Shown: positions 12,569-15,537, counted from the first letter of the stretch. The stretch is 64,000 nucleotides of DNA from Candidatus Liptonbacteria bacterium (GCA_016194445.1 JACQBP010000010.1:75-64074), one strand, 5' to 3'. The notes: generated by a model from the letters alone, not told the origin. Program-made: numbers and translations.

Positions 12569-13084
12569 TCATAGCGTAATGGAGGATTTGGTGCGTTCGA
12601 GGAAGTCTTTGAGGGATCTGGGGAAGCTCGCGAAGTAGAGGAGGGAGCCGAAGGCGGTGCCTAAAGTGACAGAGATCAAAAACTGGTTGTATTCTCGGAT
12701 AAGCAAATAGTCAACCAGGGCGTAGGCCGAGAGGGCGGTGACGACAAGGACGGTGAGGCCAACGGTTTTGTGAGAGGCGACGACATTTTTCATCGTGAAA
12801 AGAATAAAGACGATGACGCTCGCTAAGAAAGCCAAGTTGAGGTTGATGCCCTGGAAGATCGGGTCGTGGGGAAAGCCAACGTCTAAAAAGTGACTGACTT
12901 TATAGACTAAAACGATAGCGACGAGAGTGAGGCCACCCCAGAAACCGGATTTGACGGCTTTGACGTCTCTCGCGTAATCCGGATCTTTGTCGGTCTTTTT
13001 AGTCATCACAAGAACAAGCAAGAGGATAAGAGGGATAATGACCCAGGTGATAAAGTCGAAGAGGAAGTTTAAAGTTTTGGGCAT
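12569..13084 (-). CDS. integral membrane hypothetical protein
   Basis: Four to five hydrophobic helices. The start was taken at the MPKTLNF ATG (13082-13084), which directly abuts a 19-bp inverted repeat. Confidence 0.5.
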   Translation of the reverse strand: MPKTLNFLFDFITWVIIPLILLLVLVMTKKTDKDPDYARDVKAVKSGFWGGLTLVAIVLVYKVSHFLDVGFPHDPIFQGINLNLAFLASVIVFILFTMKNVVASHKTVGLTVLVVTALSAYALVDYLLIREYNQFLISVTLGTAFGSLLYFASFPRSLKDFLERTKSSITL

Positions 13085-13371
13085 CCCAGTACTACAATTT
13101 TGATTGATAATACGACCTGAGGCGTTTGGCCAGAAATCTTCGTCCACCAGTAGCTTTAGTTTTCTCTGCGTTCAGCGTCAACTTCACTAGTGCAGGCTTC
13201 AAAATAGATCAGTTTCATAGGTAATCTTGGTTTAGTTGAAAAGTTCAACCCTTTTTGATGTTCTTCTATTCTTCGCTTCAAGTTGTTGGTAAATCCAATA
13301 TATTGGTTATCATCTTTAAGACTTTCTAAAACATACACGTAGAAGAACATCGTCAAAATTGTAGTACTGGG
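13085..13371 (-). mobile_element. 287-bp element bounded by perfect 19-bp terminal inverted repeats (CCCAGTACTACAATTTTGA) and carrying a GIY-YIG minigene
   Basis: TIR-L is at 13085-13103 and TIR-R (reverse complement) at 13353-13371, a 19/19 match. Both ends are flanked by an ATG, and the element lies between the start codons of two genes. Confidence 0.55.
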
Positions 13372-13374
13372 CAT
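13156..13374 (-). CDS. small GIY-YIG nuclease-family protein (YhbQ/UPF0213-like, slightly C-truncated)
   Basis: The FYVYVLES...YIGFTNNLKRRIEEHQKG motif defines a GIY-YIG core. The first seven codons (MPSTTIL) are encoded by the inverted repeat itself. Confidence 0.7.
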   Translation of the reverse strand: MPSTTILTMFFYVYVLESLKDDNQYIGFTNNLKRRIEEHQKGLNFSTKPRLPMKLIYFEACTSEVDAERREN

Positions 13375-13516
13375 GATAGAAGTTTAAAATTTAAAGATCA
13401 AAATGTAAAATTTTGGTATCCGTCCGGATTTCCAAGATAGGTTGTGCTTTTATGGTATCTTATCTGACACATTTTGAAAAGTTGAAAAGTTAGATTACAA
13501 TTAAGGGAGATTTATG

Positions 13517-13643
13517 CCCGGTACTACAACTTCAACGCTTAAAATACCAGCGGTTTATATTCTGTGTTTTGTTTTTAACCGTAATGAACTTAATATTTGG
13601 CAAGATAGTCGACTTAGGATAAAATTGAAGTTGTAGTACCGGG
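13517..13643 (+). mobile_element. 127-bp gene-less, MITE-like derivative of the GIY-YIG element, with 19-bp perfect TIRs (CCCGGTACTACAACTTCAA)
   Basis: TIRs at 13517-13535 and 13625-13643 match 19/19 within the pair but differ at 4 positions from the 13085/13353 pair. Both ends are flanked by TATG. The internal 40-codon ORF (MPGTTTSTLKIPAVYILCF...) looks like a decayed GIY-YIG N-terminus. The element sits between the ribosome-binding site and the ATG of the ATPase gene. Confidence 0.5.
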
Positions 13644-13644
13644 T

Positions 13645-15537
13645 ATGCCATTTTTATCGCAAGATGTAGTTTATTTCGGCCGGACGGATTTTCGTAACGC
13701 GAAGCGACTTTTCGGCATTAAGCGCAACGATCGGCGACAGCATATGTACGTGGTGGGGAAGACTGGGACTGGTAAAACGGCTCTGCTTCACAACATGGTG
13801 GTGCAAGATATTACGAATGGCGAGGGGGTGTGCGTGGTGGATCCGCACGGAGAGTTTGTGGAAAGTCTTTTGTCTAAAATTCCGGAGGAGAGACTCAAGG
13901 ATGTGATTTATTTCAATCCGGCGGACACCGATTATCCGATGGGGTTTAATCCGCTCGAGTTGCCGGATCAAAAATATAAACACTTGGCGGCTTCGGGGCT
14001 GATGGCCATTTTTACCAAGATTTGGGCGAATGTTTGGTCGGCGAGGATGGAGTACATTTTAAATAACGCTATTTTGGCGCTCTTAGAGACGCCGGGATCG
14101 ACACTTTTGGGAGTGAATAGAATTTTAGTCGACAAGGATTTCCGCCAAAAGATTATTGTGAACGTCAAAGATCCGGTGGTCAAGGCTTTTTGGACCAACG
14201 AGTTTGAAGCTTGGCGGGATCAGTTTCGCAACGAAGCCATCGCGCCGATTCAAAATAAAGTCGGGCAATTTCTTTCGACTGATTTGATTCGGAATGTCGT
14301 CGGTCAGCCGAAGAGCACGATCGACATTTTCGAGATTATAAACACCCGGAAAATTTTCCTCGTCAATGTTTCGAAGGGGCGGATTGGGGAGGACAATTCC
14401 GCGCTTTTAGGGGCGATGCTCATCACTAAAATTCAGCTCTCGGCGATGGAGCGGGTGCGGATTCCAGAGGAAGAACGGGCGGATTTTTATTTATACGTCG
14501 ACGAGTTTCAAAATTTTGCCACTGATTCCTTTGCCGGCATTCTTTCGGAGGCAAGGAAGTATCGGTTGAATTTGATTTTGGCGCACCAGTACATTGGGCA
14601 GCTGGTGACGGACGTTTCGACCAAAGTGCGGGACGCAGTTTTTGGCAACTGCGGGACGATGGTGATTTTTCGGATTGGGGCTACAGACGCCGAATTTTTG
14701 GAGAACGAACTGACACCCGAGTTTTTGCCAGAAGATATGGTCAACCTGCCGAATTACGCGGTTTATTTGAAGCTGATGGTGAACGGGATTACCTCGCGAC
14801 CGTTTTCGGCGGCGACGTTGCCGCCGTTTAAGGTGCCGACTTCTTCGGTGACGATTGAGAAGGTGCTCGAAGATTCTAGAAAAAATTACACGCGTTCGAG
14901 ATATGAAGTCGAGTCTCAAATTAATAGCTGGAGCGGGATGATGGGGGATGTGGTCGGTGGAGACGAAGAGAAAGCGAGGAGCGGAGTGGAACCGGGAGGT
15001 AAGTTGCCTGAGGGTCAAAAAATCGCGGCGACCTGTTCTTCTTGCGGGAAAAGGACGGAGCTGAATTTTGTGCCCACCGAGGGGCGGCCGATTTACTGCC
15101 GCGATTGTTTGGCGAAGATAAAAACGGGCGAGATGCCGAGAGTGAAGGTAGGGAAGGTCAAAGTGGCTAAACCTCAAGATAAATATTTTTCGGATTTGGC
15201 GGGATTGGGCATTGAATTTGAAGAAGATAAAAAGAAAGAGGGGGATGAGGAGGGAGGAGAAGGCAGTGAGCCTTCGAGGAGACCGGGGGGTTTGGCAACT
15301 CCGACTGGCCGAGGAATAAAGGAAATGGCGGAGGCGTCACTAAAAAAAGAAGTTTCCTTGCACTTAAGCGATCTAAAACCTAACGAGAAAGAGAGGACAC
15401 AAAAGCCGAAAAAAACTTCGGGTTTAAATATCGAAGAACTCCGGCGATCGATCACGGAAGCTTTGGAAAACCAAACGGCGGTTACTAAGGCGGAAGACAG
15501 TAATCAAAATGACTTTAGAGAAGAGAAGGCGATTTGA
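13645..15537 (+). CDS. FtsK/HerA/VirD4-superfamily P-loop ATPase (TraD/VirD4 coupling-protein-like, DUF87-like) with a C-terminal zinc ribbon
   Basis: Walker A GKTGTGKT, Walker B YLYVDEFQNF and a VDPHGEF motif. The C-terminus has CSSCGKRTELNFVPTEGRPIYCRDC. It is paralogous to 37693-39162. Confidence 0.6.
   Translation: MPFLSQDVVYFGRTDFRNAKRLFGIKRNDRRQHMYVVGKTGTGKTALLHNMVVQDITNGEGVCVVDPHGEFVESLLSKIPEERLKDVIYFNPADTDYPMGFNPLELPDQKYKHLAASGLMAIFTKIWANVWSARMEYILNNAILALLETPGSTLLGVNRILVDKDFRQKIIVNVKDPVVKAFWTNEFEAWRDQFRNEAIAPIQNKVGQFLSTDLIRNVVGQPKSTIDIFEIINTRKIFLVNVSKGRIGEDNSALLGAMLITKIQLSAMERVRIPEEERADFYLYVDEFQNFATDSFAGILSEARKYRLNLILAHQYIGQLVTDVSTKVRDAVFGNCGTMVIFRIGATDAEFLENELTPEFLPEDMVNLPNYAVYLKLMVNGITSRPFSAATLPPFKVPTSSVTIEKVLEDSRKNYTRSRYEVESQINSWSGMMGDVVGGDEEKARSGVEPGGKLPEGQKIAATCSSCGKRTELNFVPTEGRPIYCRDCLAKIKTGEMPRVKVGKVKVAKPQDKYFSDLAGLGIEFEEDKKKEGDEEGGEGSEPSRRPGGLATPTGRGIKEMAEASLKKEVSLHLSDLKPNEKERTQKPKKTSGLNIEELRRSITEALENQTAVTKAEDSNQNDFREEKAI

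Follow-up and report, generated by a model that had tools for sequence, protein, structure and literature searches.

The stretch analyzed here (the window) comprises 64,000 nt, one strand, of a metagenome-derived Candidatus Liptonbacteria bacterium (GCA_016194445.1 JACQBP010000010.1:75-64074). Between the start codons of two divergent host genes, one for a membrane protein and the other for a TrwB/VirD4-like ATPase, it carries one decayed copy (element 1) and one gene-less miniature copy (element 2) of an approximately 300-bp element (Table 1). Intact members of this family are 286 to 351 bp long, are bounded by 20-bp terminal inverted repeats (5'-CCCNGT...ACNGGG-3'; IR-L on the left, IR-R on the right), and contain a single gene, for a GIY-YIG nuclease of about 95 residues, the first 7 to 8 codons and the stop codon of which lie within the repeats. 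The family is mobile and start-codon specific; its members are bounded by the terminal repeats and by target-site duplications, and an Slx1/UPF0213-type nuclease is their sole gene. The upstream and downstream copies of the duplicated start codon are designated ATG#1 and ATG#2. Element 1 is a dead copy ahead of the membrane protein gene, and element 2 is a gene-less miniature ahead of the ATPase gene.

Table 1. Features of the two insertions and their host genes in the window, followed by members of a second hairpin family at other loci (IR, inverted repeat; ORF, open reading frame; MITE, miniature inverted-repeat transposable element)
Feature	Position	Strand	Details
Host gene 1, membrane protein	12569..13084	-	171 residues, no Pfam domain
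ATG#2, element 1	13082..13084	-	Start codon of the membrane protein (MPKTL...)
Element 1	13085..13371	-	287 bp; GIY-YIG copy decayed by a 5-nt deletion; exact 19-nt IRs
IR-R, element 1	13085..13103	-	CCCAGTACTACAATTTTGA; holds TAG (13092-13094), the stop of the repaired GIY-YIG ORF
GIY-YIG C-terminal 24 codons, other frame	13092..13166	-	EKTKATGGRRFLAKRLRSYYQSKL, then stop; second tblastn segment
GIY-YIG ORF, first 72 codons	13156..13374	-	Shortened by the frameshift; PF01541, E=2e-13, 50.9 bits (cut-off 22.6)
IR-L, element 1	13353..13371	-	Codes for residues 2-7 (PSTTIL) and part of codon 8
ATG#1, element 1	13372..13374	-	Upstream duplicate of the host start codon; opens the GIY-YIG ORF
-10-like hexamer TAAACT	13381..13386	-	Precedes ATG#1 of element 1 by 6 nt; the start may be leaderless
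Original divergent intergenic spacer	13375..13512	.	138 bp between both host genes
Shine-Dalgarno-like AAGGGAGA	13503..13510	+	The ATPase gene's own; now serves ATG#1 of element 2
Left TATG copy, element 2	13513..13516	+	ATG#1 at 13514-13516
Element 2	13517..13643	+	127 bp, gene-less, MITE-like; exact 19-nt IRs
IR pair, element 2	13517-13535; 13625-13643		CCCGGTACTACAACTTCAA and its exact reverse complement
40-codon remnant ORF, element 2	13514..13636	+	From ATG#1 to TAG within the right IR
Right TATG copy, element 2	13644..13647	+	ATG#2 (13645-13647) opens the ATPase gene
Host gene 2, TrwB/VirD4-like ATPase	13645..15537	+	630 residues, C-terminal treble-clef zinc finger (PF23477)
Second hairpin family	L011 7992-8121, 9658-9789
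Second hairpin family	L045 2879-2994
Second hairpin family	L126 7238-7367
Second hairpin family	L048 9529-9657
Second hairpin family	L065 8338-8470
Second hairpin family	L016 10032-10060
Second hairpin family	L139 7062-7196	-	Minus strand

As a sequence-only reading of the window had noted, the 19-nt inverted repeats are exact within each pair and share 15/19 positions between the pairs (4/19 differ). Element 1 has the anatomy of 63 full-length relatives from other loci (286 to 351 bp). Its GIY-YIG ORF is bracketed by the repeats, and the residues MPSTTIL are encoded by one of them, just as had been read. This ORF shares at most 78% identity with 95-residue Patescibacteria proteins. The window copy keeps the catalytic-motif residues, and its C terminus is lost by a frameshift, a 5-nt deletion near 13160 that appears as a 5-column gap against locus L013 (loci outside the window carry the prefix L); the last 24 codons (...KATGGRRFLAKRLRSYYQSKL and stop) are out of frame with the first part. 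The gene is a pseudogene. Element 1, including the frameshift, is also found in a second assembly record (Logan SRR12113409), the reads of which may be the same, and an exact-protein look-up of the 72-residue shortened ORF returned no record. Because the repaired ORF ends inside the other repeat, the element is essentially one gene with both ends within the repeats. Element 1 has C-ATG as one flank and GGG-ATG as its other flank, so that the repeat there is 3 nt long (ATG/ATG); the TATG/TATG flanks given in the sequence-only reading hold for element 2 only.

Element 2 is preceded by a Shine-Dalgarno-like sequence and ATG, as proposed, and its repeats match those of the full-length copy in L013 at 18/19 positions. 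It folds as a hairpin (DNA, -22.7 kcal/mol, z = -4.1; RNA, z = -5.0). Its 40-codon ORF had been taken for a decayed GIY-YIG N terminus, which holds for the repeat-encoded residues, to which the family match is confined; the similarity beyond them is weak (hhalign probability of 58%), and the interior aligns with full-length copies only weakly and unconvincingly. Short and noncoding, with a target duplication and with repeats like those of its full-length relatives, element 2 is MITE-like; the 64-kb window contains one copy of it. When the window was searched with a degenerate 19-mer allowing up to 3 mismatches, only 4 sites were found (0.18 expected by chance; 0/100 shuffles reached 4), and every 19-mer has an inverted partner, which runs counter to an ordinary motif that recurs unpartnered. 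The elements have a GC content of 36 to 37%, versus 49% in the flanking genes.

Each element lies between two ATGs, in line with the sequence-only reading, and the host proteins begin with MPKT (13084, -) and MPFL (13645, +). Both host ORFs are intact and open at the downstream copy of the duplicated ATG; a database protein of 171 residues that bears an NCBI name (P0121) matches exactly the ORF that opens at ATG#2 of element 1. The ORF list of the window (12569-13147, -) and the call for the Logan copy (L001 8925-9503) lengthen the membrane protein to 192 residues, by a start at a GTG in the decayed element and a run through IR-R; the 171-residue form matches the orthologues.

The insertion sites were compared with those of relatives that carry no element. 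The ATPase gene is conserved beside trmD and comEC in many Patescibacteria (596 relatives in a metagenome scan). Three syntenic relatives (L162, L164, and L166) have ComEC, TrmD, and the ATPase, followed by the divergent membrane protein and an M17 peptidase, with 96 to 155 bp between the divergent start codons and no element at either site. Once both elements are taken out of the window, along with one copy of each flanking repeat, the spacer that remains is 138 bp, within that range. At these empty loci, the membrane protein orthologues start with ATGCC[T/A]AAAACC (MPKTL), as from ATG#2 in the window, and the ATPase orthologues have the same number of residues before DVVY as the window protein, the N terminus of which is M-x5-DVVY. 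The inverted repeat of the elements was found in none of 78 further ATPase orthologue loci. Thus, orthologous loci with the same sequences at identical positions and no empty site, a result that would have spoken against insertion, were not what we found. The membrane protein orthologues were obtained by protein search and subsequent contig look-ups; a tblastn search of 80 ATPase loci found none.

To place the two copies in a family, the repaired 94-residue protein was used as the query of a protein search, which yielded 286 relatives, with named sources of Patescibacteria, Liptonbacteria, Harrisonbacteria, Levyibacteriota, or simply "bacterium." Most are 87 to 105 residues long, and the closest is 78% identical; relatives with a full N terminus start with MP[S/G/R]xTT, and the closest subfamily ends with ...YYxSKL. 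A scan of one genome per species gave 266 coding stretches; 80 loci from about 71 Patescibacteria assemblies with GIY-YIG relatives were fetched, and 70 elements (63 full length and 7 gene-less) were tabulated. The common order is (T)ATG, IR-L (CCCNGTNNTACAAC...), the GIY-YIG gene, IR-R (...GTTGNNNTACNGGG), (T)ATG, and a long ORF on the same strand; across the family, IR-L codes for MPxxTTS and IR-R holds the stop codon. That GIY-YIG minigenes elsewhere would be bracketed in the same way was borne out in nearly all fetched loci, and in each subfamily, including those at only 57% identity, the repeats contain the ends of the gene. An ATG lies immediately 5' of IR-L in 63/70 elements, and an ATG within 0 to 2 nt of the element opens a same-strand ORF, mostly of several hundred codons, in 67/70. 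All full-length copies (63/63) are co-oriented with the following ORF, and the downstream host genes are unrelated from locus to locus. The family is widespread in Patescibacteria. A phage origin was rejected: no DNA match was found among 50,697 phage records, and the single relative in IMG/VR is 49% identical and lacks the N-terminal extension.

The flanks of the tabulated elements co-vary. Of the elements whose left flank is ATG, 48 carry a T between IR-R and the second ATG, and in 47 of these a T also precedes the first ATG; the 13 elements without the right T have a left T in only 6 cases (Fisher P = 2.8e-5). This linkage means that the duplication is TATG in most elements and ATG in some. 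Four insertions that lie off the usual TATG position have matched flanks of another kind: CTTG/CTTG in L072, where the site is 18 nt ahead of a start of the form TGTATAAT-6 nt-ATG; TACG/TACG in L047, where the remnant of an older element forms the junction; ATAA/ATAA in L078, where a stop and a start overlap (TAATG); and ATGA/ATGA in L080. These flanks are not explicable by each end merely needing a start codon. The co-variation (TATG, ATG, CTTG, TACG, ATAA, and ATGA) indicates a target-site duplication of 3 to 4 nt, and the empty target site is written as TTTATGCCC-type.

A T occupies position -1 at 87% of the occupied targets versus 47% of background starts, and ATGCC is found at 21% versus 8%. 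Insertions into the TATG/CCC junction of existing copies (L044 and L047) point to a preference for targets similar to the left junction of the element itself. The preference for TATG alone is ruled out as the cause of the start-codon position, since ORF starts (at least 60 codons) make up 8% of the ATG and 12% of the TATG sites in the same loci versus 96% of the insertions (P ~ 1e-69). We also considered leaderless promoters as the true target. A -10-like hexamer lies 5 to 8 nt before ATG#1 at 22% of the occupied sites, compared with 12% of background genes (P = 0.027), and a hexamer spacing of 6 nt is the mode at occupied sites (12.5% versus 5.2% of background genes); this enrichment is modest and not a requirement, and the idea was rejected. 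Shine-Dalgarno-like motifs are equally rare at occupied and background starts (13% and 11%). TATAAT-like hexamers exactly 6 nt before ATG#1 are seen in many loci (e.g., L005, L033, L037, and L040), and together with the rarity of Shine-Dalgarno-like motifs they make many genes in these Patescibacteria look leaderless. The start-codon position may combine a preference for (T)ATG(CC), the need for an in-frame ATG from which the nuclease can be expressed, and the loss of harmful insertions in gene-dense genomes.

Copies of the element move to unrelated loci and decay into gene-less miniatures. In one Doudnabacteria genome, two copies at unrelated loci (L059 and L066) are 100% identical over 309 bp; the identity starts at TTTATG and stops at GGGTATGCCC, and the flanks are unrelated. 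Other same-genome pairs at unrelated loci are 97.7% (L070/L080) and 95.7% (L017/L047) identical, and L044 contains two tandem copies that share one TATG. ATG#1 or the reading frame has been lost in 8/63 full-length copies, and 55/63 are intact from ATG#1. Gene-less copies of 127 to 143 bp, plus one of 69 bp, occur in seven genomes, those of 134 to 143 bp being at gene starts in L013, L044, L054, L058, and L065. A common origin of the miniatures was rejected, as their interiors do not align between genomes, and each may have decayed in place. The proposal that the window holds two members of a small family that inserts at start codons with duplication of ATG or TATG is thus supported by every check that accompanied it, namely, the search for other copies and for empty sites, the tabulation of flanking duplications, and the comparison with GIY-YIG minigenes elsewhere.

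Truncated or degenerate older copies adjoin intact elements at several loci (L069 1823-1945, L044 11670-11734, and L047 6305-6330), which suggests that gene starts accumulate arrays of insertions, new copies entering old TATG/CCC junctions. In L078 (5988-6294), a GIY-YIG gene of the family without both terminal repeats directly follows the 69-bp mini-hairpin, which consists of IR-L and IR-R alone; it may be a rearranged or immobilized copy.

The left end of the element is CCC, and the element itself brings no start codon; codon 9 is not reliably one, and in the 55 intact copies ATG#1 reads in frame into the nuclease; the nuclease would therefore be expressed from the promoter and ribosome-entry signals of the host gene. 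The stop codon is located within IR-R in 52/55 intact copies, and 7 to 11 nt separate the stop from ATG#2 in 47/55, a spacing consistent with the geometry of termination followed by reinitiation. In RNA folds, the paired stem takes in AUG#1 along with bases 1 and 2 of AUG#2.

The terminal repeats were analyzed as 57 distinct pairs of 20-bp arms. Of the arm cells, 97.1% are paired, and 14/17 pairs carry changes on both sides; none of 500 shuffles reached these values, and no slid register of the arms comes near the observed pairing. Inner positions vary among close relatives yet stay complementary (ACTTCCAG/CTGGAAGT, ACCTCCC/GGGAGGT, and ACCCCCAG/CTGGGGGT). Since the arm-encoded peptide is not conserved and the pairing is kept, selection appears to act on pairing rather than on the protein ends. 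The only systematic break is a 3-nt bubble at positions 8 to 10, found in 44/67 elements exactly at the TGA stop of IR-R. G·U cells (8) are no commoner than C·A cells (11), which points to a constraint on DNA (hairpin, cruciform, or symmetric recognition) and not on mRNA. An RNA-level structure as the reason for the repeats was rejected on these grounds, together with the lack of any Rfam match for the element RNA (best scores far below gathering). The same data bear on a quite different explanation, in which the element is an immobile host regulatory cassette whose GIY-YIG upstream ORF and RNA hairpin control translation of the downstream gene. The strong RNA hairpin that includes AUG#1 and the tight spacing from the stop to ATG#2 are what such a cassette would have, but the arms lack the G·U tolerance of a structured RNA; moreover, the downstream genes are unrelated between loci, unrelated loci carry identical copies, the sites are empty in syntenic relatives, and pseudogenes and miniatures exist. 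We regard the cassette as very improbable.

The nuclease belongs to the Slx1/UPF0213 (YhbQ-like) branch of the GIY-YIG superfamily. Six residues corresponding to the GIY, YIG, Arg, His, and Glu motifs (Y14, Y25, G27, R35, H39, and E59) are invariant in 31 family members, and the solved structures closest to the family profile are 1ZG2 (UPF0213 BH0048, 4e-11), 1YWL (UPF0213 EF2693, 4e-6), and 7WME (SLX1, 4e-4). The median ratio of nonsynonymous to synonymous substitution rates (dN/dS) is 0.116 (codons 10 to 90, 16 elements), and the nuclease is under purifying selection. Prokaryotic Slx1-like proteins are described as the minimal stand-alone form (PMC1564403), and the family proteins, at 87 to 105 residues, amount to the catalytic domain alone and carry no DNA-binding extension. 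The repeats enclose no other gene.

Because GIY-YIG is a classic homing-endonuclease fold, we weighed the possibility of a free-standing homing endonuclease gene, the product of which would cut empty sites so that recombinational repair copies the gene into them, with the repeats and the repeated ATG as by-products or expression signals and not transposon ends. As with homing elements, the host gene survives the insertion intact, and the target bias resembles the element's own junction (TATG/CCC in L059/L066, the tandem copies, and L047). The model for group I intron endonucleases (TIGR01453) gave weak matches, at 17 to 23 bits against a cut-off of 56 (E of 7e-5 to 4e-3). Homing, however, needs flanking homology, whereas the identical copies lie at loci that share only TTTATG...TATGCCC (6 to 7 nt), and the matched flanks other than NATG are true target duplications. 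The 95-residue protein also lacks a DNA-binding extension, and homing does not require the arms to co-vary as pairs. This explanation seems to us quite unlikely. An I-TevI-like cleavage motif, CNNNG, fits the CCCNG end and was considered and dropped, as the known cut positions would lie inside the element, where they would not give the observed duplication.

We consider it probable that the nuclease is the mobility enzyme of this family, that its translation starts at the upstream ATG copy, and that the host gene is kept translated by coupling. According to this model, ATG#1 together with the host's promoter and ribosome-entry signals would drive translation of the nuclease; ribosomes would stop inside IR-R, 7 to 11 nt before ATG#2, and reinitiate there. 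Ribosomes crossing IR-R would also open the hairpin in which AUG#1 and the initial AU of AUG#2 are otherwise paired, unmasking the host start, so that the host gene would stay expressed and the insertion would be nearly harmless. The nuclease would cut with a stagger at (T)ATG targets, at the ends of the element, or at both, with the two arms recognized either in folded form (DNA hairpin or cruciform) or by their symmetry. Both the constraint on pairing at the DNA level and the absence of a DNA-binding domain would be explained by an Slx1-like structure-specific enzyme that acts at the base of a DNA stem formed by the arms or, alternatively, by a dimer that acts on the two symmetric ends. That the nuclease itself makes the cuts is less certain than the remainder of the model. 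GIY-YIG enzymes are hydrolytic nucleases that, as far as characterized, leave 3' overhangs of 1 to 2 nt and do not join DNA; host ligation or repair would hence have to complete the move.

Several points weigh against this model. Overhangs of 1 to 2 nt do not obviously explain a duplication of 3 to 4 nt, and the length of the duplication varies between 3 and 4 nt even among close relatives (L057 versus L059); the flanks are unmatched in L003, L049, and L050. A 95-residue domain with no DNA-binding domain would have to account for recognition of ends and target and for the joining of DNA. The empty sites come from relatives at about 60 to 64% protein identity and not from near-identical alleles. 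The association with start codons could reflect selection after less specific insertion instead of targeting. In most of the other miniatures, the ORF from ATG#1 stops in the loop, so coupling cannot be the sole route of host gene expression, and both window copies are dead, with nothing active in the window itself.

A further step is to regard the family as a new class of autonomous prokaryotic DNA transposon, with an Slx1-like GIY-YIG nuclease of about 95 residues as its sole protein and a promoter and start codon captured at (T)ATG, ribosomes being handed on to the host gene by the stop codon in the right repeat. The arms would then act as a hairpin or cruciform recognized by a structure-specific nuclease that has no DNA-binding domain. 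We advance this reading tentatively and give it slightly less than an even chance. The chief competitor of the model with the nuclease as mobility enzyme is a nonautonomous element moved in trans by an unlinked conventional transposase that recognizes CCCNGT...ACNGGG and generates a 4-nt duplication, the GIY-YIG gene being a passenger (a homing or retention nuclease or host-beneficial cargo). Terminal inverted repeats with a short target-site duplication are a hallmark of transposase-driven elements, and no GIY-YIG transposase is described in the literature searched. The same genomes also contain a second hairpin family, the ends of which are similar (CCCCGT) and the flanks of which are 4 nt long; it is gene-less, with no nuclease gene inside. 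The gene ends, however, are embedded in the repeats in every subfamily, which speaks for long co-evolution and not for capture, and identical copies have multiplied with the nuclease gene intact (dN/dS of 0.12). A larger transposase-bearing parent with the same ends was also rejected: none was found in the approximately 750 kb of flanking sequence, the only long end pairs being the tandem copies in L044 and a miniature beside a full copy in L058. That sequence covers parts of each genome, which leaves room for an unlinked enzyme. We consider mobilization in trans unlikely.

The second hairpin family has the ends CCCCGTTAGA[A/G]G…C[T/C]TCTAACGGGG and a length of 116 to 135 bp, plus one 29-bp mini-hairpin (Table 1). 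Its matched 4-nt flanks are TGAA, TTTA, TTGA, and TCAA, and it is often found at gene starts. In four cases, the site reads ATGAA-element-TGAA-AAA, and the last G of the element together with TG makes a GTG start; these GTG starts open ORFs of 41, 150, 214, and 260 codons. Other small GIY-YIG genes were also observed. In L027 (7870-8120), a GIY-YIG paralogue lies within a different 12-nt inverted repeat that is outside the ORF (ACCCCGCCCTCT/ATG...TAG/AGGGCGGGGT) and may represent a separate family of mobile GIY-YIG minigenes. Small paralogues without the CCCNGT repeats lie beside tRNA-end-like sequences in L048 (1284-1559), L011 (1641-1922), and L052 (6205-6471). These ends look T-arm-like on both sides in L048 and 5'-end-like just downstream in L011 and L052, and they hint at other target preferences.

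If the nuclease moves the element, it would represent a new enzyme class in DNA transposition and lower the minimum size of autonomous mobile elements, with a gene of fewer than 100 codons whose ends are its own recombination sites. At about 300 bp, an autonomous transposon of this kind would be smaller than any autonomous mobile element known to us, and its existence could explain the role of the widespread stand-alone UPF0213/YhbQ/Slx1-like proteins. As a new parasite strategy, the start codon and promoter of a host gene would be taken over, and the host gene would be restored by the duplicated ATG and the built-in stop, which would allow survival in the tiny, gene-dense genomes of Patescibacteria, with almost no neutral DNA. 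For annotation, gene callers may extend a host gene into the element, and they treat the nuclease gene like any other. A nuclease this small, with an insertion site that is short and defined, is also a possible genetic tool.

Among known systems, the GIY-YIG homing genes (T4 Seg, I-TevI, and I-BmoI type) likewise consist of a selfish nuclease gene that spares host genes and is expressed by the host. Their enzymes, however, have 200 to 250 residues, a separate DNA-binding domain, and long specific targets, in contrast to the bare 95-residue domain here; they lack terminal inverted repeats and a target-site duplication and reach only the cognate allele through flanking homology, whereas the present element has 20-bp repeats, a 3- to 4-nt duplication, and unrelated host genes. 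It thus shows neither the DNA-binding region of a homing endonuclease nor homology-dependent spread free of repeats and duplication. Insertion sequences and their miniatures (Correia elements of Neisseria and ISfinder families) share with it the terminal inverted repeats, a short target-site duplication, several copies, and miniatures of about 130 bp. Like DNA transposons in general, the family has terminal inverted repeats, a short target-site duplication, and near-identical copies at unrelated sites in one genome (the two in the window being diverged), but the element encodes no DDE, HUH, serine, tyrosine, or DEDD enzyme. It differs from insertion sequences in that its sole gene is a GIY-YIG nuclease gene with its ends in the repeats and that it occupies the start codon in a fixed orientation. 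The smallest insertion sequences known to us measure about 700 bp, so that an element of about 300 bp is less than half that size.

Further systems resemble the element in single traits. The likeness to piggyBac is one of logic only and comprises 5'-CCC...GGG-3' ends, a 4-nt target on both sides (TTAA there, TATG here), and possible seamless excision; piggyBac has a DDE transposase of about 600 residues and a palindromic target. IS200/IS605 elements with TnpB or IscB are likewise very small, with end hairpins, a short target, and a nuclease that promotes persistence, but they have no terminal inverted repeats or target duplication, an HUH transposase, and an RNA-guided accessory nuclease, whereas the present element has the repeats and duplication and no HUH gene. 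Rickettsia palindromic elements are also small palindromic insertions compatible with host gene expression; unlike the element described here, they lie in frame within coding regions, encode no product, and lack a defined target at start codons. Penelope-like retroelements likewise have a GIY-YIG nuclease domain in a mobile element, which cuts the target with a short stagger, but they are eukaryotic, depend on a reverse transcriptase, and lack terminal inverted repeats of this kind. Full-text literature searches, outside of which most subscription journals fall, returned no description of a GIY-YIG element with terminal inverted repeats or of a start-codon-specific bacterial insertion. The element combines features of homing genes and of insertion sequences and fails a defining test of each; with a nuclease that is predicted to be catalytic, it appears to be categorically new in composition and targeting.

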